DNA from: Endomicrobiales bacterium
GTDB lineage: Bacteria > Elusimicrobiota > Endomicrobiia > Endomicrobiales > CAWCFT01
Direction of reading: 5' to 3'
NCBI GenBank assembly: GCA_963794945.1
Contig: CAWCFT010000001.1
Coordinates: 96,001-160,000 of the forward strand
DNA length: 64,000 nt
In this document: positions 40,458-50,855 of the stretch, one piece after another
Layout: every line of letters begins with the position of its first letter
How positions within the stretch are numbered: position 1 is the first letter of the stretch
The notes under the pieces: model-generated
Told to the model about the DNA's origin: nothing
Databases searched by the model: none
The model's input: the letters and a program-made list of their open reading frames with translations, nothing else
Translations under genes and position numbers: made by a program

Positions 40458-40519
40458 TGTGGCCTCCTTTCAGCCCTGGTCCGCCTTCCCCCATCAGAAC
40501 TGTGCCGCAAATATTATGC

Positions 40520-41165
40520 TTCCAATCCAGCTTCCGTTTTGCTTACATCTGTCTTCGCGAGGCCGCCTCTGGCGGGCGTGGCGATCTTGATGTTCGCCTT
40601 CCTTTCAGCTTCAATTCAAGATTCCAATTTGCTTCCAGTTAAGCTTCATGTTTGCTTCCAATTCAGCTTCCATTCTGCTTCCATCAAGCTTCCCTTAAGC
40701 TTCCTTTTTGCTTCTAGTTTAGCTTCCATTTCGGCTTCTATTTTGCTTCCATTCGTCTTCGCGAGTCCGCCTCTGGCGGGCGTGGCGATCTCGATGTTAG
40801 CCTTCCTTTCAGCTTCCATTCAAGCTTCCATTTTGCTTCCAGTTAAGCTTCATTTTCGCCAACATTCCGCGCATTAAACTCCTTCGCCCAGCAAGTCAAA
40901 TCCGCCGTGGTAGGCAGGTGGTATAAATGTTTGTCAAACTTCCTCTCCATTGATGGGAGAGGATTGAGGTGAGGGTGAGATTGACCAACTTTCAGCTTCC
41001 TATTTGCTTCCAATTAAGCTTCCGTTTTGCTTCCATCTGTCTTCGCGAGTCCGCCTCTGGCGGGCGTGGCGATCACGACGTTAGCCTTCCTTTCAGCTTC
41101 CATTCAAGCTTCCTTTTTGCTTCCAAATCAGCTTCCATTAATGCTTCCCTATCAGCTTCCCTGCC
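40520..41165. repeat. Three imperfect copies of a GTCTTCGCGAG-CCGCCTCTGGCGG-GTGGCGATC unit embedded in AGCTTC-rich short repeats
   Basis: Core copies start near 40551, 40756 and 41039. Confidence 0.8.
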
Positions 41166-41744
41166 GGCAGTTTAAGCCCTTCCTATCAATGAGCACTGAA
41201 GCCCCTCAATCTTACACAAATAGCCCTGAAATCCGCCTTCTTGTGTTGCGGAATAATCATTCATAATACAACAACTTAATGCATTTGATGTTAAACCTGG
41301 TTAGTGAAAGCCTGACATCGTTTAGTTGTAAAGTCTTTGCCCGCGAACGACGAGCAACGAGATACGAACGACTGCCTCTAGGTTTTGCACAAATATTTAT
41401 AGCAGATTTTTTGAATATTTCAAGGTTTTGAGAGTTTTGAGCGGGAGGGTTAACCCCGTTAGAGGAAACGGGCACTTTGCGAATAAAGATGGCTACATTA
41501 CACCACCATCTAACAGCATTGATTCAAACCACCGACAGGAACCGGCGGCATCCTCTAACGTGGTGAAGATTAACACTGCGCAAGCAGAAACATTAGTGAA
41601 GTCGAGTGGCCTGACATCGGAAGAGTTATGTCTCTAATTCCCACAATAGGTTCAACAAGTCAAGCCTGATAATATGAAAGCAACCTCCATCTAGTTTTGT
41701 TAAACTTATTGTATCGAGCAATAAGACAAAACGAGGAGGTTGCC

Positions 41745-42770
41745 ATGAATTATGTTGGTGTAGACTTGCACAAAGAGCGTTCTTGGTTTTACGTGACGAA
41801 CGAGCAGGGCAAACGGATTGACAGCCAGAGTATAGCAAATTTGCCAGAAGTGTTGCGATCATATTATAAAACGCTCCCACGACCATTTACACTTGCAGTT
41901 GAAACGACTTACAATTGGTACTATTTCGTTGATCTCGCCGAAGAATATGCTTACAAGGTGTATCTTGCGAATTCGTACGAGCTGAAAGCATTTGCAAAAC
42001 GAAACAAGAAAACAGAACAAGATAGATGCCCGGCTTATAGCCGATGTGCTCCGTAAGGGCTATTTACCTACAGTAGAGCTGCCAAACAAGAAGATACGAG
42101 CTATTAAAGAACTGTTGCATTGCCGGATGAGCATTGTCAGTGAACGAACGCGGAACACAGCACGGTTAAAGTCACTTCTTGATCGCCATGGACAGATGTC
42201 AACGGGTGACTATACTTCAATGAAGCAATTGAACGGTATTGCGGTGAACAAATTATCTGAACCGTGCCGGATTGCCGCAGAAAACTGGATTGAGCAAATA
42301 GGCGCTTTGAATGCGCGTGAAAACCGTATCGGGTGGCAACTACATGCAATAGCCGAAAGTGATCCCGACGCACGGAATCTTGAAAGTATTCCTGGGATCG
42401 GCAGTTTTAGTGCATTGCTTATTAAAAGCGAGATAGGCGATATTAGCCGTTTTACAACATTTAACCGCCTCTGCGCGTACGCAGGCCTTGCACCGAGAAC
42501 ATTCCAGAGCGCCGACAAAGAATATCACGGTTCTTTAAATAAGAATCGGCGTAAACACCTACAGTGGATATTGATTGAGGCAGTTCACCATTTTTCAAAG
42601 AGAGCGTTGAACGAACAGAAAAGTATGAAGCTATAGCCAAACGGAAAGCGCCCAACGTGGCGCGAGTGGCTCTTGCCAGAGATTTATTGAAAATTGTGTA
42701 TCGAGTTTTGAAAGATAAGCGGCCATATTATATACGGACTACGGCGTCCCTCGCGCTCAATGGTGCCTGA
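41745..42770 (+). CDS. IS110 DEDD recombinase/transposase (one +1 and one -1 indel relative to copy 2)
   Basis: VGVDLHK, AVETT, IDA and GLAPRTFQS motifs. Confidence 0.9.
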
Positions 42771-42900
42771 AGTGTCCGCCGCAAGGCTGACAGCTTCAAC
42801 AAGTCTGATTAGCGGAGGGGCGTCGCCCGATTCTATCATGCAGTCCGCCAAGTGCAGAGCTGCCAATAGGTGACTGAAGTCCGGATATTTTCGGAGCTTC
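42740..42900 (+). ncRNA. Predicted bridge/seek RNA of IS copy 1 (boundaries approximate)
   Basis: Internal loops carry segments matching the target and the donor junction (see findings). Confidence 0.7.
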
Positions 42901-43041
42901 TTACGATACAAAGCGGGCGAACGGCCAAAGAACTTGTTTAACAGAACAGATCAGTAGTTAGAAACTACTGCGGAGATACTTTTTGTCACCTTGACTTTTT
43001 CTTTCATAGGTGACACCGTTCATCGAATGGTAGTTTGGGGA

Positions 43042-43124
43042 ATCGCAAACTTGGAACAGTCACCTCAGGCAATCGCCGGCCTCTTGACGAGACCCGCCAG
43101 TTGTTTTTGGCGGGCCTGACTCCA
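43042..43124 (+). repeat. Diverged inverted copy of the ~110-bp repeat ending GGCGGGCCTGACWCCA
   Basis: TCGCARACTTGGAACAGT...TTTGGCGGGCCTGAC is shared with the copies at 47949 and 48936. Confidence 0.8.
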
Positions 43125-43151
43125 CTTAATATTTTACTAACACCAATTTCT

Positions 43152-44258
43152 TTAGATTGCCAATACATTTCTTAAAGCTGAATCGATTTCATCCCAATCT
43201 TTAATCCAGCAAACAGCAACCCCTAAATGGTGAAGACCGCATTCCATAATATCACGCAACCATTTTTCTTTCGGTAAAACATTAACCCACACATGGTATG
43301 CAGGAATTTTAGCGCCTCCTGAAATAACGTCAATGTCATTAATATTATTTTTATGTGTCCAAGCCAACCATTTTCTGATATTTAAATCGCTTAGCGAATG
43401 CCCTATTATCAGCATTCTTGTTGTTTGAGCATAATATAGAAAAGTCGACTGAGTCCAGGAAGACATGTTACCAGCTATATCCAAATAATCTTTCTCTCGA
43501 AATACAAGTTTATCTCTTGAATCTCTTCGATGTTCCTTTAAGGCTACTTTAACGTTAGGCGCAATCGCACCATGACTATAAATGAATGGAATGCTCCCAT
43601 GCCATACATATTGTGACCTAAATACACTTTGATATTTCCTCTTCGGCCTCACGTGTTGCCCTATTTTTGTTTCATGTTCATTAATTGCTAGTACATCTGT
43701 AATTGTATATAAAAGAGTATCTGCATTAAAACTGAGTACCGCTGTTGGGGCTTTGGGTGTATCAACTAAGTCGTTTAATATCCGAGAAAGACTAAAGATT
43801 GTCGTTTGCTTAAATTCTTTTTCCAAAAATACATATAGCTTTTCCATTTGACGTAGTTTTAAATATCTCGGATCACTCAATGCTATAATCAGCTCTTTTG
43901 TTACATTATATGTGGTAGCCTTTTTGAATAGATCATTATAAAGAGCTGACCCAAGAATTGAAATAAACTTTCTCGCATCAGTGCTACTGGAGTCTATAAT
44001 ATTTTCGGCTGCTTGAATATAGGCATCTAGACCCCAGCCCGTATTTACACAAGCTTTTTTAAATTCATCAAATGCTATTTTTGTCTTAAAAGCATCCTGC
44101 AGTACATGCCAAGTCAATTCACTCCAATTAGGAACTAACCCAGTAGAAGTTCCGGCTCCAATGCATAAAGTCCAAGGAACATTGCTTACGCTTCCCCTAT
44201 ATTTAGTTTCCAGTCCAAAGAAGGACTCTTTCAATGGTCGTACACATTTGACAAGCAT
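43152..44258 (-). CDS. SIR2-like domain protein (putative NADase defence effector)
   Basis: CIGAGTS...PNW, SFNAD, HG and IIGHSLSDLNIR motifs in AT-rich DNA. Confidence 0.8.
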   Translation of the reverse strand: MLVKCVRPLKESFFGLETKYRGSVSNVPWTLCIGAGTSTGLVPNWSELTWHVLQDAFKTKIAFDEFKKACVNTGWGLDAYIQAAENIIDSSSTDARKFISILGSALYNDLFKKATTYNVTKELIIALSDPRYLKLRQMEKLYVFLEKEFKQTTIFSLSRILNDLVDTPKAPTAVLSFNADTLLYTITDVLAINEHETKIGQHVRPKRKYQSVFRSQYVWHGSIPFIYSHGAIAPNVKVALKEHRRDSRDKLVFREKDYLDIAGNMSSWTQSTFLYYAQTTRMLIIGHSLSDLNIRKWLAWTHKNNINDIDVISGGAKIPAYHVWVNVLPKEKWLRDIMECGLHHLGVAVCWIKDWDEIDSALRNVLAI

Positions 44259-44318
44259 TGTTCGCTCCTTAAAATAGGAACTTTGACTTTAGTGAAAACG
44301 TTAGCCTGACACCATTTC

Positions 44319-46535
44319 TTATTCTTCTTGCCTGTTATTTTTTTGTATTGTATCTAAAATATTGTGTGTGTGCAACCGCAATTTCATTGCCTCTTCCGCT
44401 GTTAATTCGTCAGAGTGAGCAATTTTATTTCTTATCGATTGAAGCTCAATAAACTTCGAGTAAAATAGTTCCTTACTTGAAAATACTTCTTTAAACACTT
44501 CTTCCCAATTATCTCTCCTCGCAATTATTTTATAGTAATCCGGAAAATCAACTGATATCATTTTTGATTTTTCTTCAGGTATTGCCCATGGATATATATT
44601 TTCTTTTTTACTGTGCCTGTCTTCGGCATTTTCCTTCACATCTGAAGGTATCCTTTCATTCCACCAATTACTACTAATACCATTAAGCTTAGTTTCAACA
44701 AATGTTCTTAAATTGACCTCCAGGTCTTTCAAAATATTATAAGGCTCTGACTTTTGGTAAGCCATTTTCTTTCTCTTCTCAATATCCTTAATATATTCTA
44801 TGGCAAACAACTCATTTGACTTATTAATTGTTTCGATGATCATCAATGCAATGTTTGCTCGCCCAGCTTCATTACTTGTCATTGCACGGTATTCTTTAAT
44901 TTTTGAATAATTATTTAAAAAGAATGCAATAATCGGCTCTTTTATTAAATCTTCTACTTTTCTCTTATCCCATACACCTTTGAAATATTGCAACACCTCA
45001 ACCAAAACTCTTGTGAATATATTGAAACCATTGTTATGAAGAATAAAACCTTTTTTCCACTCATGATATTCCTCCGCAAATGAATCTATGAGGGTAAAAT
45101 ATTCATTAATGACTTTCTCGGGGAAGACAAGAATACTATCGGGAAAAGGAATCGTTTCGCTTACTTCTCCATTTTTTTGGTATAGGTTATACGTTCCCTT
45201 AACAAGCGGATCAATAATCTTTCTGTCATATAAAGTATTGCATATGTTAGCTAATTTTAGGGGATATGCCGATGCTTTGCGTTGTTGGTGTCTAGGAATA
45301 AGAATTTTACCCTTGAAATATCCAGTTTTATTAAGTTCTTTTGCTATTTTGGTTATTGCACCCTGAATAGAATTCGGATCAGTTTGTGAAAGCAAATCCC
45401 ATAACAAATTTGGATCTACAGATTTCTGTTTTTGATTAATATCAATAAAATCTCTAGCTTGTTGTTTTTTTCCAATATCTTGATATGCTGTAACACTAAT
45501 ACAATATTTTAGTTTCTCGGTATTAGCTTGGGTGTAGCCATAAATTCTATGTTGCCCATCGATGATCCAAACGCTACCATATATTTTGGGGATAGAAAGT
45601 ATCCCAAACGCCATATTGGTATCTTGCAGAAGTAATCCAGTATTTTTTGGCTCAAATGTCACTTGCTTTTCAAAACTACAAACCACATTGTTTTTAAAAA
45701 ACCCTCCATTGTCAATGTATTCAGCTATACCAGGCTCTTCTGTTGTTCCAAAAATACGTTTTTCATTAATAAATCTCTGGTAAGCATCTTCATTTCCAGA
45801 TTGAAGCCTGAACACGTAAACTAAATTCAATAGTTTTTCAACTGGTATATAAAAACTAAATATTTCTTGGTCTCCAATTGTTACTTTAAAACTTGGGACT
45901 TTATAATCAGCACTGCCTTCCTCATCTTTAATATACTTCGGTGTACAATTCAATTCTTTAAGAACATAATGAAATGTTAAAGAGCCAATTACTTTATATA
46001 ATCTTTCAAGAACATCAATATATCTACTGCACCACAAATATACATCGTTGACTCGTGCAGTCTCTATATCTTTAGGATCAATGTCAATATCATCAACCAC
46101 AAGAACATATCTTACCTCATTATATTTTGATCCGTATTTCTCAGCAATTGCCTTATTAATCTCTATTTGTTTTCCCTTAAAGATATCAATTTCATTTGCG
46201 ATACTTTTTTTCTTAGGCTGATCAGCACTTTTACATTCGACCACAAGCAACGTTCCATTCTTACCACCAACAGCATCTATTTGATATCTACCAAGCCAAG
46301 AATTATAGCCAGATTCAATATCATCAAAACCCAATATTTCAAGCAGAATTCTTACTCTTTCTTGAAATAATTCCCATTTTTTAAATTTTTTCTCTAAAAT
46401 AATCTTCCCATTATCAGTTTTTTTAATTAGGAAACCAACTTTCTTAAAAGATTCTATTTCATCCTTATTTTCCAACTCAATCTCAACTAATTTATTCTTT
46501 TGAGGACTAGGCACTTTCCATTTACTTTGCTTCAT
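44319..46535 (-). CDS. PD-(D/E)XK nuclease - DGQHR (DndB-like) - Swt1-like HEPN fusion protein
   Basis: QIDAVG..LLVVECKS, YQR, IIDGQHR, FIDIN.KQK, LEVNLR..WW and RNKIAH. AAGGAG RBS before the ATG at 46535. Confidence 0.85.
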   Translation of the reverse strand: MKQSKWKVPSPQKNKLVEIELENKDEIESFKKVGFLIKKTDNGKIILEKKFKKWELFQERVRILLEILGFDDIESGYNSWLGRYQIDAVGGKNGTLLVVECKSADQPKKKSIANEIDIFKGKQIEINKAIAEKYGSKYNEVRYVLVVDDIDIDPKDIETARVNDVYLWCSRYIDVLERLYKVIGSLTFHYVLKELNCTPKYIKDEEGSADYKVPSFKVTIGDQEIFSFYIPVEKLLNLVYVFRLQSGNEDAYQRFINEKRIFGTTEEPGIAEYIDNGGFFKNNVVCSFEKQVTFEPKNTGLLLQDTNMAFGILSIPKIYGSVWIIDGQHRIYGYTQANTEKLKYCISVTAYQDIGKKQQARDFIDINQKQKSVDPNLLWDLLSQTDPNSIQGAITKIAKELNKTGYFKGKILIPRHQQRKASAYPLKLANICNTLYDRKIIDPLVKGTYNLYQKNGEVSETIPFPDSILVFPEKVINEYFTLIDSFAEEYHEWKKGFILHNNGFNIFTRVLVEVLQYFKGVWDKRKVEDLIKEPIIAFFLNNYSKIKEYRAMTSNEAGRANIALMIIETINKSNELFAIEYIKDIEKRKKMAYQKSEPYNILKDLEVNLRTFVETKLNGISSNWWNERIPSDVKENAEDRHSKKENIYPWAIPEEKSKMISVDFPDYYKIIARRDNWEEVFKEVFSSKELFYSKFIELQSIRNKIAHSDELTAEEAMKLRLHTHNILDTIQKNNRQEE

Positions 46536-46676
46536 TTTACTCTCCTTTGATAAAATAACGGTGTCACCTATGAAAGAAAAAGTCAAGGTGACAAAAAGTA
46601 TCTCCGCAGTAGTTTCTAACTACTGATCTGTTCTGTTAAACAAGTTCTTTGGCCGTTCGCCCGCTTTGTATCGTAA

Positions 46677-46837
46677 GAAGCTCCGAAAATATCCGGACTT
46701 CAGTCACCTATTGGCAGCTCTGCACTTGGCGGACTGCATGATAGAATCGGGCGACGCCCCTCCGCTAATCAGACTTGTTGAAGCTGTCAGCCTTGCGGCG
46801 GACACTTCAGGCACCATTGAGCGCGAGGGACGCCGTA
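46677..46837 (-). ncRNA. Predicted bridge/seek RNA of IS copy 2
   Basis: Reverse complement of 42740-42900. Confidence 0.7.
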
Positions 46838-47832
46838 GTCCGTATATAATATGGCCGCTTATCTTTCAAAACTCGATACACAATTTTCAATAAATCTCTG
46901 GCAAGAGCCACTCGCGCCACGTTGGGCGCTTTCCGTTTGGCTATAGCTTCATACTTTTCTGTTCGTTCAACGCTGCTCTTTGAAAAATGGTGAACTGCCT
47001 CAATCAATATCCACTGTAGGTGTTTACGCCGATTCTTATTTAAAGAACCGTGATATTCTTTGTCGGCGCTCTGGAATGTTCTCGGTGCAAGGCCTGCGTA
47101 CGCGCAGAGGCGGTTAAATGTTGTAAAACGGCTAATATCGCCTATCTCGCTTTTAATAAGCAATGCACTAAAACTGCCGATCCCAGGAATACTTTCAAGA
47201 TTCCGTGCGTCGGGATCACTTTCGGCTATTGCATGTAGTTGCCACCCGATACGGTTTTCACGCGCATTCAAAGCGCCTATTTGCTCAATCCAGTTTTCTG
47301 CGGCAATCCGGCACGGTTCAGATAATTTGTTCACCGCAATACCGTTCAATTGCTTCATTGAAGTATAGTCACCCGTTGACATCTGTCCATGGCGATCAAG
47401 AAGTGACTTTAACCGTGCTGTGTTCCGCGTTCGTTCACTGACAATGCTCATCCGGCAATGCAACAGTTCTTTAATAGCTCGTATCTTCTTGTCTGGCAGC
47501 TCTACTGTAGGTAAATAGCCCTTACGGAGCACATCGGCTATAAGCCGGGCATCTATCTTGTCTGTTTTCTTGTTTCGTTTTGCAAATGCTTTCAGCTCGT
47601 ACGAATTCGCAAGATACACCTTGTAAGCATATTCTTCGGCGAGATCAACGAAATAGTACCAATTGTAAGTCGTTTCAACTGCAAGTGTAAATGGTCGTGG
47701 GAGCGTTTTATAATATGATCGCAACACTTCTGGCAAATTTGCTATACTCTGGCTGTCAATCCGTTTGCCCTGCTCGTTCGTCACGTAAAACCAAGAACGC
47801 TCTTTGTGCAAGTCTACACCAACATAATTCAT
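46807..47832 (-). CDS. IS110 DEDD recombinase/transposase, 341 aa
   Basis: GVDLHK, VET, KTDKIDA, IPGIG and YAGLAP..QS. Confidence 0.95.
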   Translation of the reverse strand: MNYVGVDLHKERSWFYVTNEQGKRIDSQSIANLPEVLRSYYKTLPRPFTLAVETTYNWYYFVDLAEEYAYKVYLANSYELKAFAKRNKKTDKIDARLIADVLRKGYLPTVELPDKKIRAIKELLHCRMSIVSERTRNTARLKSLLDRHGQMSTGDYTSMKQLNGIAVNKLSEPCRIAAENWIEQIGALNARENRIGWQLHAIAESDPDARNLESIPGIGSFSALLIKSEIGDISRFTTFNRLCAYAGLAPRTFQSADKEYHGSLNKNRRKHLQWILIEAVHHFSKSSVERTEKYEAIAKRKAPNVARVALARDLLKIVYRVLKDKRPYYIRTTASLALNGA

Positions 47833-47948
47833 GGCAACCTCCTCGTTTTGTCTTATTGCTCGATACAATAAGTTTAACAAAACTAGATGGAGGTTGCTTT
47901 CATATTATCAGGCTTCACTAATTACACTAACTCTCTGTCAACCTTCAA

Positions 47949-48059
47949 AAATGGTGTCAGGCCCGCCAAAGATAACCGGTGGATCTCGCCAAGAGGACGG
48001 CGGCTGCTTGAGGCAACTGTTCCAAGTCTGCGACTCCGACTTGACTTATTGTACTTATC
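47949..48059 (-). repeat. ~110-bp direct repeat downstream of KilA-N
   Basis: Aligns with 48936-49046. Confidence 0.88.
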
Positions 48060-48083
48060 CTCCAAACCACACTAAAAGCTTTA

Positions 48084-48899
48084 TTATTTCAGACTTTTAA
48101 TCGAATTACTGGAAAGAAGCGAACGCATTTGTGCAATAGCGATTTCGTTCAGCTTTATTATTCTTTCCGATTGTTTCATCCCCTGGCGTATCAGCACAGA
48201 GTTTATGCTTTCAAGGTTGCTGAGCACTACTAGTTGTTCGAGAGTTGCACAATCGCGGATATTGCCCTCTTTGCCCGGATTTTCCGAACGCCACGCAGCC
48301 GCGGTTTTACCGAAAAGAGCGACATTAAGCAGGTCAGCTTCTGAGGCGTATATATTATTTACTTGTTGTTAGCTCAATTCTTTCGGCATAAGATTTTCTT
48401 TTATCGCGTCCGTATGAATGGTATAATTAATTTTGGCAAGAGTGCGTTGAAGGTTCCAACCAAGTTTTTTCGAGGATATTTCTTCGTCTTTTAAACGCTG
48501 AAATTCTTTTATCAGATATAGTTTGAATTCCACTGAAACCCAGGAAGCAAACTCAAAGGCTATATCTTTATGGGCGTACGTGCCCCCATACCTTCCCGGT
48601 TTTGAAATAAGGCCTCGCGCTCCGGTTTGTTCTATCCACTGCTTTGCGGTAAGAACAAAACTGTTGATCCCTGCCTGTTTTCTAAACCCCTCGAATTCGG
48701 TGGGTTTAAAAAGCGGGTTGTTAAGCTGTTCCCATATGCCGAGAAATTCTATTGTATTGCGGTTTCTAAGCCAATTCTGGATTATATAGTCTGTTCTGGC
48801 AGGATCTTTATAACGCGCTATATCTGTAATACATATATAATCATCCCGTTCTTTTGAGTAGAAAGACACAACAGTGTCCAATACTTTAATGTGGCTCAT
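48084..48899 (-). CDS. KilA-N domain DNA-binding protein (one in-frame TAA at 48369-48371)
   Basis: DYICITDIAR, NWLRNRNTIEFLG and GRYGGTYAHKDIAFEFASW. The same frame continues YASEADLLNVALFG after the stop. Confidence 0.88.
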
Positions 48900-48935
48900 T
48901 TCAATTCTCCTTTTATGAGCTAAATTCTCCTCAAT

Positions 48936-49046
48936 AAATGGTGTCAGGCCCGCCAAAGATAACCGGCGTACCTCGCCAAGAGGCTGGCGGCTGCCTGAGG
49001 CGACTGTTCCAAGTCTGCGACTTCGACTTGACTTATTGTACTTATC
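48936..49046 (-). repeat. ~110-bp direct repeat upstream of KilA-N
   Basis: Aligns with 47949-48059. Confidence 0.88.
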
Positions 49047-49777: not shown

Positions 49778-49791
49778 TCTTGTCTCCGATT

Positions 49792-49821
49792 AACCGTTAC
49801 AACCGCGTAGGTTGCAACGGT
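49792..49821. repeat. REP-like palindrome flanking the RAYT
   Basis: AACCGTTACAACC-gcgta-GGTTGCAACGGT. Confidence 0.8.
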
Positions 49822-50477
49822 CATTCCAACAACAAATCTTTTATTTTATGTAATTCCTGCTGATAAGATATTCTGTCTTCCACAAAGTTTTTATATTCAC
49901 CTGAGCTGATCGTGATAAGGTCGCGATGACTGGTTAAATTATTTCTATCGTAAATTCCGCTTAGGTATTCCTTGTAAGATGAGGCCTTCCATGATTCGGG
50001 TTTATCGGTTAATTCGGATGTAACAGGATTTAGATGGACGTATCTTGTTAAATGGAGTAAATATTCGTTTGTGTTGACCAGCACGCTTTTGAACCTGCTC
50101 TCCCATAGAGGCCCTTTTCTTTCGTGCTTTGTATTAAAATATCTAGTATAGCTGTTTAAAACGTTGTTCATGAAAACTGATATTCCTTTTCCAGTGTTCT
50201 GCTTCAACACAAAATGCACATGAGTCGGCATAATACAGTACGCGATTATTTGCACCAGATCATTTTTCGTATCATGGAATCCCATGAAATCAAGTTTATT
50301 TTCTCTTAAAAGCTTGTCGTATCTTGAAAAACTGATATCCGGTTTTTCCTTTTGATAGAACTTTACAGCTTCAAGCATCCTGAAATAATCCGTCTCCGTA
50401 TTAAATATAATGTACCGGGCTATACTTCTCGAAAACACGTGGTATACTTGTCCCTCAACTAACAAATCCTTTCTCAT
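49821..50477 (-). CDS. REP-associated tyrosine transposase (RAYT, IS200-like Y1 HUH)
   Basis: YHVFSR, YCIMPTHVH (HUH), LWESRF, YVHLNPV and W..SSY. Confidence 0.9.
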   Translation of the reverse strand: MRKDLLVEGQVYHVFSRSIARYIIFNTETDYFRMLEAVKFYQKEKPDISFSRYDKLLRENKLDFMGFHDTKNDLVQIIAYCIMPTHVHFVLKQNTGKGISVFMNNVLNSYTRYFNTKHERKGPLWESRFKSVLVNTNEYLLHLTRYVHLNPVTSELTDKPESWKASSYKEYLSGIYDRNNLTSHRDLITISSGEYKNFVEDRISYQQELHKIKDLLLE

Positions 50478-50490
50478 CCTGATCCCTTTT

Positions 50491-50521
50491 AACCGTTACA
50501 ACCTACGCGGTTGTAACGGTT
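50491..50521. repeat. REP-like palindrome flanking the RAYT (inverted copy)
   Basis: AACCGTTACAACC-tacgc-GGTTGTAACGGTT. Confidence 0.8.
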
Positions 50522-50855
50522 ACTTCTCAAGTTTAAGAATGTTGTAAAGGCCGTCACGCAGTTGTTCTTTGTCTACGGCGGTGCCGAACCTTATGCCGGC
50601 AACGTAGTAGCCGTTCCTGGAGGACACGTGCATTACCTTTCCCAGGGCGTGCTCAAACACGTGGTCGGTTCCCAGCGTGAAGCTCAAGTGGATCAATTCA
50701 TTGTCCCTTACCGGAAAGCGCGTTTCTATCTGCAGGCCGCCCAGGCTTACGTCGTAAATAACTCCCCATCCCTCGAAATTTTCCCTCTCGTAGAAGCGCA
50801 TAAGCACTGGGATGGAAGCGCTGAACCGGATATTGCTGCGGTATTCTTTTGTCAT
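50520..50855 (-). CDS. PilZ domain protein
   Basis: RxxxR (RSNIR) and DVSLGG. Confidence 0.85.
   Translation of the reverse strand: MTKEYRSNIRFSASIPVLMRFYERENFEGWGVIYDVSLGGLQIETRFPVRDNELIHLSFTLGTDHVFEHALGKVMHVSSRNGYYVAGIRFGTAVDKEQLRDGLYNILKLEK

Follow-up and report, generated by a model that had tools for sequence, protein, structure and literature searches.

An IS1111-type insertion sequence in an Endomicrobiales genome with a predicted bridge RNA in its 3' tail

The insertion sequence and its recombinase

The window, that is, the whole stretch of 64,000 nt that was analysed, carries a 1344-bp insertion sequence of the IS110/IS1111 type in two inverted copies. Copy 1 lies at 41667..43010 on the plus strand (ends placed by the 7/3-nt convention) and has a frameshifted transposase, and copy 2, which is intact, was placed at 46567..47910 on the minus strand by sequence comparison of the window copies. 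Whole-genome comparison gives a total of five copies; the intact 341-aa protein is encoded by copy 2 and by a copy on contig C3, while copy 1 and the two others are frameshifted. Both window copies have the junctions AAGCC-TGATAATATG and CATAGG-TGACACCGTT, with the AAGCC and CATAGG borders that a preliminary description of this DNA had read. The junctions are common to the five genomic copies, one copy being off-consensus. The third copy, outside the window at C1:172964-171618, has the junctions AAGTC-TGA and CATAGG-TGGTACC.

Several features of the element's DNA are those of the IS1111 group. The noncoding region is longer downstream than upstream, with 240 nt 3' of the stop vs 78 nt 5' of the gene. 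Subterminal inverted repeats lie 7 nt in from the left end (41674..41683, plus strand) and 3 nt in from the right end (42998..43007, minus strand), matching at 9 of 10 bp; this repeat is short against the usual 11-13 bp and inside the range of 7-17 bp, and its register is shifted in most close homologs. A -35 box, TTGACT, was read from the sequence at 42991..42996 on the plus strand, which on the predicted circle stands 17 nt before TAATAT (41670-41675), and joined ends would thus form a TTGACT-17-TAATAT junction promoter. A promoter scan blind to the circle junction returned 2 sites vs 1.9 expected, and no circle joint was seen among the assembled contigs of four contig sets. A single 194-nt contig of an RNA library matches the 3' half of the tail at every position, though it gives neither strand nor ends and DNA carry-over is possible; the same run gave no contig over the middle of the gene.

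Two smaller observations concern the copies themselves. A +A frameshift is common to copy 1 (42016) and the C2 copy (G000 C2:82255-80908), which sit at different sites, suggesting either mobilisation in trans after inactivation or a common assembly error. At the left end (41684-41744), the segment GCAACCTCC has its complement in GGAGGTTGC, which covers the ribosome-binding site, and comparable complementary pairs are visible in the left ends of homologs; this pairing is a possible translation-damping hairpin.

The intact gene (46807..47832, minus strand) was assigned from Pfam, NF033542 and alignments as a 341-aa DEDD recombinase with the residues D7, E53, D91, D94 and S255. Its counterpart in copy 1 (41745..42770, plus strand) carries +1 and -1 frameshifts, +A near 42016 and -C near 42602, which leave only 103 aa in frame. 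The protein matches PF01548 (E 9e-25) and PF02371 (E 2e-19), the DEDD RuvC-like and Transposase_20 domains, and scores 221.8 bits against the IS110-family model NF033542, whose cut-off is 140. Among 50 aligned sequences D7 is nearly invariant and E53, D91, D94 and S255 are invariant, and these catalytic residues align with those of the IS621 and ISCro4 chains, as expected of an IS110 recombinase. The length falls inside the IS1111-group range of 330-350 aa, and the group motif GL-P----S/T-G reads GLAP....SA here and SG or SA at its end in close relatives. Identity to IS4321, ISAzs32 and ISEc11 is 21-25% (25% to ISEc11, 21% to IS4321), and the proteins of IS621 and ISCro4/IS622 are matched only at E 3e-12 and 2e-10. 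A quick tree of 33 rows, built without IS621 or ISEc21, places the recombinase on its own branch, which groups neither with the long IS110-type outgroup nor with the ISEc11+IS4321 or ISAzs32 clade. Because of this low identity and separate branch, membership of the IS1111 group rests on DNA and RNA features. Two scans of viral contigs found no relatives of the element, and related genomes gave weak matches in 4 of 60, none close.

Between the inverted copies (43152-46586) lie a SIR2-like gene (368 aa) and a gene with DGQHR/DndB and HEPN domains (755-aa ORF), likely a defence pair in a composite-transposon-like arrangement. To the right, a KilA-N domain gene (48369-48956) sits between two copies of a 118-nt repeat. 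Just left of copy 1, positions 40518-41147 hold degenerate 11-12-nt tandem repeats rich in GCTTCC, and further left (7061-39539) intergenic repeat families, with terminator-like 49-nt and promoter-like 64-nt units, are interspersed between short genes.

The predicted fold of the 3' tail and its four guide segments

The predicted bridge or seek RNA spans 42735..42899 on the plus strand (approximate ends), and the same sequence occupies 46678-46842 on the minus strand in copy 2. The preliminary description had placed four guide matches in it, and the letters were verified at all four positions, namely AATGGTG at 42759-65, AAGTCTGA at 42801-08, TATCA at 42834-38 and ATAGGTGA at 42866-73. All four guides do lie in these segments, but the exact register is different, with the 5' guides running through the core. 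The 5' target guide (42760..42768, plus strand) is predicted to pair with the plus strand over TG and the 7 nt to its right, and the 3' target guide (42801..42807, plus strand; AAGTC+TG) with the minus strand of the left flank over 5 nt plus core. Likewise, the 5' donor guide (42830..42838, plus strand) would pair with the plus strand over TG and 7 nt of the left end, with 2 mismatches in this element against the family form, and the 3' donor guide (ATAGG+TG) lies at 42866..42872 on the plus strand. Within the 5' target guide, C42766 mismatches A in four of the five own sites. The site of the C1 copy departs from consensus exactly where the RNA does, in that T42804 becomes exact and C42766 pairs with G. 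A perfect guide match was not found in the genome (0 observed vs 0.15 expected).

The last A of each 3' match, together with the next base, likely forms the handshake position. In the target loop the putative dinucleotide (42808..42809, plus strand) is AT, equal to the two donor bases after TG, and in the donor loop (42873..42874, plus strand) it is AC, equal to the two target bases after TG.

How often such matches arise by chance was gauged with 5000 dinucleotide shuffles of 42740-42900. A single match occurred in 9 shuffles for the left donor, 62 for the right target, 386 for the left target and 460 for the right donor; two or more together occurred in 53, and three or more in none. Two other candidates were set aside. 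A left-target guide at 42765-70 (GCCTGA, exact at four sites) is unconserved and falls outside the top of the unbiased scan described below, and the same holds for target-like letters within the inner hairpin.

The fold called for by the preliminary description has a predicted energy of -65.6 kcal/mol for 42735-42900 (z -2.48), a value reached by 2 of 200 shuffles. Its outer stem and both inner hairpins are present and covary strongly, the named helices showing 194 two-sided changes vs 62.6 when shuffled and at most 43 when slid. The outer stem of the target loop pairs 42744..42757, which is protein-coding in intact copies, with 42811..42823 (both plus strand); 98.7% of its alignment cells are paired and two-sided changes occur at 10 of 13 pairs. 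Inside the loop stands a GAAG...CTTC hairpin (42769..42797, plus strand), with the strands TGAAG at 42768-72 and CTTCA at 42794-98, supported by fold and covariation. Between the donor guides, a GCAG...CTGC hairpin (42840..42864, plus strand) has two-sided changes at 7 of 9 pairs, and both the donor guides and this hairpin are kept across 42 aligned sequences. The structure is conserved with its guide segments in loops, as in a bridge RNA. Rfam gave no match at E <= 1 within 41000-48500 of the window.

Two further helices compete. The long-range helix P1 joins 42735..42740 (plus strand) to 42878-42883 and covaries (38 two-sided changes vs 14.3); it would enclose the donor guides in a multiloop, an arrangement described for IS1111 orthologues (PMC11208160). 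A 3' hairpin at 42876..42899 (plus strand) uses the same 42878-42883 and covaries too (48 vs 14.6). The two are mutually exclusive, and the alternative folds are ~3 kcal/mol apart. On a tree each has 1-3 independent pairs, none opposing, which falls short of significance.

The target loop also overlaps the end of the coding sequence. The reported overlap with the last codons and stop of the recombinase is found in copy 2, which ends N-G-A-stop. The stop of copy 2, at 42768-70 in copy-1 coordinates, is a TGA directly 3' of the 5' target guide, as it is in 37 of 46 rows of the homolog alignment (33 of 42 homologs). It comes earlier in 6 of the 46 rows and later in 3, so the tail of the protein is not essential. 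The mutually exclusive covarying 3' helices and the stop overlap suggest a translation-coupled switch, a hypothesis still because independent tree events are few. Ribosomes reaching the in-loop stop would unfold the target loop and P1, the freed strand would snap into the 3' hairpin, and active bridge RNA would come only from untranslated or processed transcripts. A literature search found no paper on an IS110 bridge RNA overlapping a stop codon; figures were outside its coverage and may show one. In distant relatives (L060, L064, L065, L085, L146, L152, L170), the tails are longer and GGGTTGG occurs a second time 3' of the target loop, which may represent a duplication of that loop.

Covariation of the guides, and the probable register and core

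A protein search returned 575 relatives at E <= 1e-40, and scans with the alignment of these gave 80 genome and 80 metagenome loci. The best-ranked 74 loci (L018-L053 and L098-L135; 34-92% identity) and 5 own-genome loci were used; all RNA anchors were found in 53 of these 79, leaving 46 after removal of 7 duplicates, and 41 homolog rows once the mis-parsed L130 and 4 own-genome rows were set aside. Rows without an end are excluded from the count for that end. The anchors consist of conserved letters only and fix TGAT at the left end and A, T and G in the left donor; since the end-finding patterns fixed those letters, invariance there is partly by construction.

An unbiased scan of 4736 pairs of RNA column and DNA position in the 41 rows placed predicted guide pairs at six of the top seven. 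Left-flank positions -1, -3, -4 and -5 go with 42805, 42803, 42802 and 42801, left-donor -3 with 42868, and right-flank +3 with 42764. The left-target guide is exact at 158 of 190 cells vs 110.5 when permuted (183 of 190 with wobble), and the left-donor guide at 204 of 245 vs 186.4; for neither was any of 10,000 permutations as high. For the right-target guide the count is 181 of 245 vs 169.5 (21/10000 as high), with +3 significant (p 0.0006), +4 and +6 marginal and +7 null; the 5'-most letters assigned to it earlier (42759-60) show no covariation. Among close relatives the right-donor guide does not vary (3662/10000 as high). Where the left-target guide departs from exact pairing, the cause is mostly a G-U or U-G wobble (23 to 25 cells) and less often a mismatch (6 to 7).

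Phylogeny was taken into account with a tree of transposase residues 1-322, omitting the part that overlaps the RNA. Changes at left -1 ran in the same direction in 5.7 of 7 independent pairs with none opposite (median p 0.03), and at left -3 in 4.4 of 5 with none opposite. Left-donor -3 (4 pairs) is short of significance, and the right target has only 2 independent pairs. Automatic calling of ends and guides in distant loci was clean only for L053, L134, L135 and L187, the others being noise and uncounted. L187, a haloarchaeal relative of ~30% identity, has a changed donor guide and changed handshake bases that follow its own sites.

Homolog covariation, the check that the preliminary description had proposed, thus supports the guide assignments. 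The support is strong for the left target, moderate for the left donor and weak for the right target, and for the right donor it comes from one distant relative. As in bridge RNAs, target guides covary with insertion sites, the left with tree support and the right at +3 only.

The same junctions bear on the core. An identical TGA core had been proposed earlier, which does not hold: of 49 homolog junctions 44 are TGA, 2 CGA, 2 TGG and 1 CGG, and the C1 copy, with TGA at one junction and TGG at the other, indicates that an identical TGA is not required. L146 and L148 are 99.7% identical and both begin with TGA, ending with TGG and CGA, respectively; the T/C position at the right junction is thus derived from the target. 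All three right-junction bases come from the target, as the 7/3 IS1111 end convention implies and as one-strand transfer would give. The shared core is likely TG. Pairing extends to -5 left of TG in both target and donor, and right of TG in the donor to +7 in 36 of 36 rows and to +8 in 0 of 36, which would correspond to the 14-nt site of IS621 (7+2+5) read on the minus strand. The guide order with right guides first would then follow from the IS621 geometry with the DNA flipped. Handshake bases agree with this register: in 32 of 32 rows the target-loop AT is identical to the two bases that follow in the donor, and in 26 of 32 the donor-loop pair is identical to those that follow in the target. 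They are nearly invariant, the covariation coming from L187 only, where the positions read AC and AA and match its own donor and target. L187 lies on a Natrinema plasmid and has the same CATAGG-TGA right end and guide order with the whole bridge RNA 5' of the gene, indicating that guide order is independent of RNA position. Four guide-like matches stand in this order in ISEc11 as well, but inspection by eye did not show the handshake pattern there, and the claim is therefore not extended to all IS1111 elements. The passages of the literature that were consulted do not join IS1111 with a handshake; figures were outside the search and may show the flipped register.

What is observed is the element with its junctions, the conservation of the fold and the covariation between guides and DNA. 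Beyond this, it is highly probable that the 3' tail of this IS1111-type member of the IS110 family encodes a two-loop bridge RNA guiding the DEDD recombinase, a mechanism established for relatives (PMC11208160, PMC11208158, PMC11187229). The ends would join into a circle, whose TTGACT-17-TAATAT promoter would transcribe gene and tail. The target loop would pair with both strands of the 14-nt site AAG(C/T)C-TG-(A/G)CACCRT, and the donor guides with ATAGG-TG-ATAATAT, in a geometry of 7 nt, 2-nt core and 5 nt with a handshake dinucleotide after each 3' guide and the minus strand read. That strand would be cut just left of T and transferred, so that the left junction inherits the donor TGA and the right junction the target (T/C)G(A/G).

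A variant of the same bridge-RNA mechanism, with a GA core or a 3-nt TGA overlap and the handshake one base on, is rather unlikely. It draws on GA being the only dinucleotide under all four guides in the family consensus, on the 5' target guide leaving T unpaired, and on an invariant second core base, which would mirror IS621 (PMC11208158). L107, where this element's C in the 5' target guide meets a G target and both 3' guides switch from A to G together with the target, is ambiguous, fitting a GA core equally well. Against GA stand the target-derived T/C of the 99.7%-identical pair and the reach of the donor guide, which ends at +7 from TG; counted from GA, the seventh base pairs in 0 of 36 rows.

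Less probable still is that the target loop alone, as a ~80-nt seekRNA, is needed, the ends being read by the protein through the subterminal repeats and the donor segments being dispensable. An 82-nt short seekRNA was sufficient for movement of ISEc11 (PMC11187229), a target-loop-only RNA was dominant for CazIS110-1 (bioRxiv 10.1101/2025.10.25.684509), and in this element two bases of the 5' donor guide are mismatched and the tree lends little weight to donor covariation. Nevertheless, the 3' donor guide follows the right end without mismatch in 35 rows (A/A 15, G/G 11, T/T 3, wobble 6), the conserved donor guides and hairpin change with the donor in L187, and circle formation and integration of CazIS110-1 required full-length RNA (bioRxiv 10.1101/2025.10.25.684509). 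That the matches are accidental, or remnants of duplications, with no guide role and with the protein alone setting specificity, is very improbable: single matches are short (5-8 nt) and two of them turn up in 8-9% of shuffles, but triple matches do not, and the covariation, which involves host DNA outside the element, has mostly wobble-type departures and no opposing tree pairs, already largely refutes this reading.

TIRtron ends as targets and relation to known systems

Three of the five copies have inserted into inverted-repeat ends of the HUH TIRtron type, and the outer end of such a repeat is the usual target of the element. A Y1 (HUH) transposase gene (PF01797) lies on contig C15 between 35-bp repeats at 88210-88244 and 89156-89190, which are 94% complementary and bear the target, the organisation expected of a TIRtron. 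The left flank of copy 2 (47911..47932, minus strand), together with its right flank at 46557-46566, equals 30 of 31 nt of this 35-bp repeat. The left flank of copy 1 (41650..41666, plus strand), together with 43011-43020, forms a TIR-like repeat; this related repeat is also the site of the C2 copy and is found empty elsewhere in the genome. The sites of the remaining two copies are not evidently repeats. The empty motif AAGCCTGACAYC occurs 7 times in the genome vs 1.2 expected, and the local target variant is GGTGTCAG, for which the guide carries the matching change. Read on the other strand, homolog targets are GGGGTCAG, which fits the TIRtron motif GGGGWSAS (PMC3733652; bioRxiv 10.1101/279083); the wider clade uses a site of the GGGGTCAG type, and the same junctions are kept by many relatives at 26-38% identity. 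A literature search found no paper joining IS110 elements with TIRtrons, and an IS110 element using these repeats is not mentioned in the portions of the TIRtron literature consulted. A combined reading, in which the target loop is a dual-coding switch, the clade, widespread and with a core other than CT, parasitises TIRtron ends by RNA guidance, and the IS1111 guide order is IS621 chemistry flipped, is put forward only tentatively, as doubtful in its entirety.

Much of the arrangement has precedents. The order of right guides before left, observed as the preliminary description stated, is not a novel feature: it is the published IS1111 pattern, in which the top-strand match precedes the bottom-strand match, and the inverted guide order, an RNA 3' of the gene and natural reprogramming have all been described for this group (PMC11187229). 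For 93% of IS1111 elements a bridge RNA has been predicted (PMC11208160). Like ISEc11, ISPa11, ISKpn4 and ISPst6, the element has a long noncoding region 3' of the gene, and with the IS1111 seekRNA elements it shares repeats 7/3 nt from the ends, a (here predicted) junction promoter, a protein of ~340 aa, the top-strand match 5' of the bottom-strand match, and targeting of repeats of other mobile elements (PMC11187229). It differs from those elements in its shorter repeat, the target loop overlapping the coding sequence, the TIRtron-end target, and donor guides that are identifiable and partly covary (PMC11187229).

Like IS621 and ISCro4/IS622 (PMC11208160, PMC11208158, bioRxiv 10.1101/2025.05.14.653916), it has a target loop followed by a donor loop with both strands paired, a 14-nt site of 7+2+5, a DEDD and serine active site and, probably, a handshake. 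It departs from IS621 and ISCro4 in having the RNA at the right end, in using the opposite DNA strand, in a core that is probably TG (on the cut strand, CA) where theirs is CT, and in donor guides that would lie in a multiloop. CazIS110-1 also has several copies per genome, and its transfer of one strand would account for the presence of a single parent's core at each junction here, with the strand preference here deduced from natural junctions only (bioRxiv 10.1101/2025.10.25.684509). The Y1 gene between 35-bp inverted repeats resembles TIRtron/TIRYT elements (PMC3733652; TnpA-Y1 subclass 2.1, bioRxiv 10.1101/279083).

On these sequence grounds the element is best filed as a well-supported putative member of the IS1111-type seek/bridge elements, predicted to work like an IS621-type bridge system. 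The mechanism is published, and the element is a further example of it, which adds natural covariation evidence for an IS1111-type RNA with donor and target guides in the IS621 register, a point that matters because the seekRNA and bridge RNA papers differ on donor guides in such RNAs. Its intact recombinase is distant from all those tested so far (no named IS1111 member exceeds 25% identity) and is plausible as a new programmable recombinase; a TG core, if confirmed, would widen the sites open to bridge editing. The work further points to TIRtron ends as a target class that can be tested, and suggests that translation and guide folding may be linked.

Repeats related to the target also occur around the two copies. 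A ~118-nt repeat ending GCCTGAC(A/T)CC lies at 43039-43127, 47942-48059 and 48929-49046, and single copies of this end motif lie at 41308, 41609 and 44304. They stand between island genes, often facing a gene, and are possibly non-autonomous TIRtron derivatives. In addition, a REP-associated tyrosine transposase-like gene (49821-50477, within 49790-50522), below the NCBIfam cut-off, is flanked by 31-nt palindromic inverted repeats of a different sequence.
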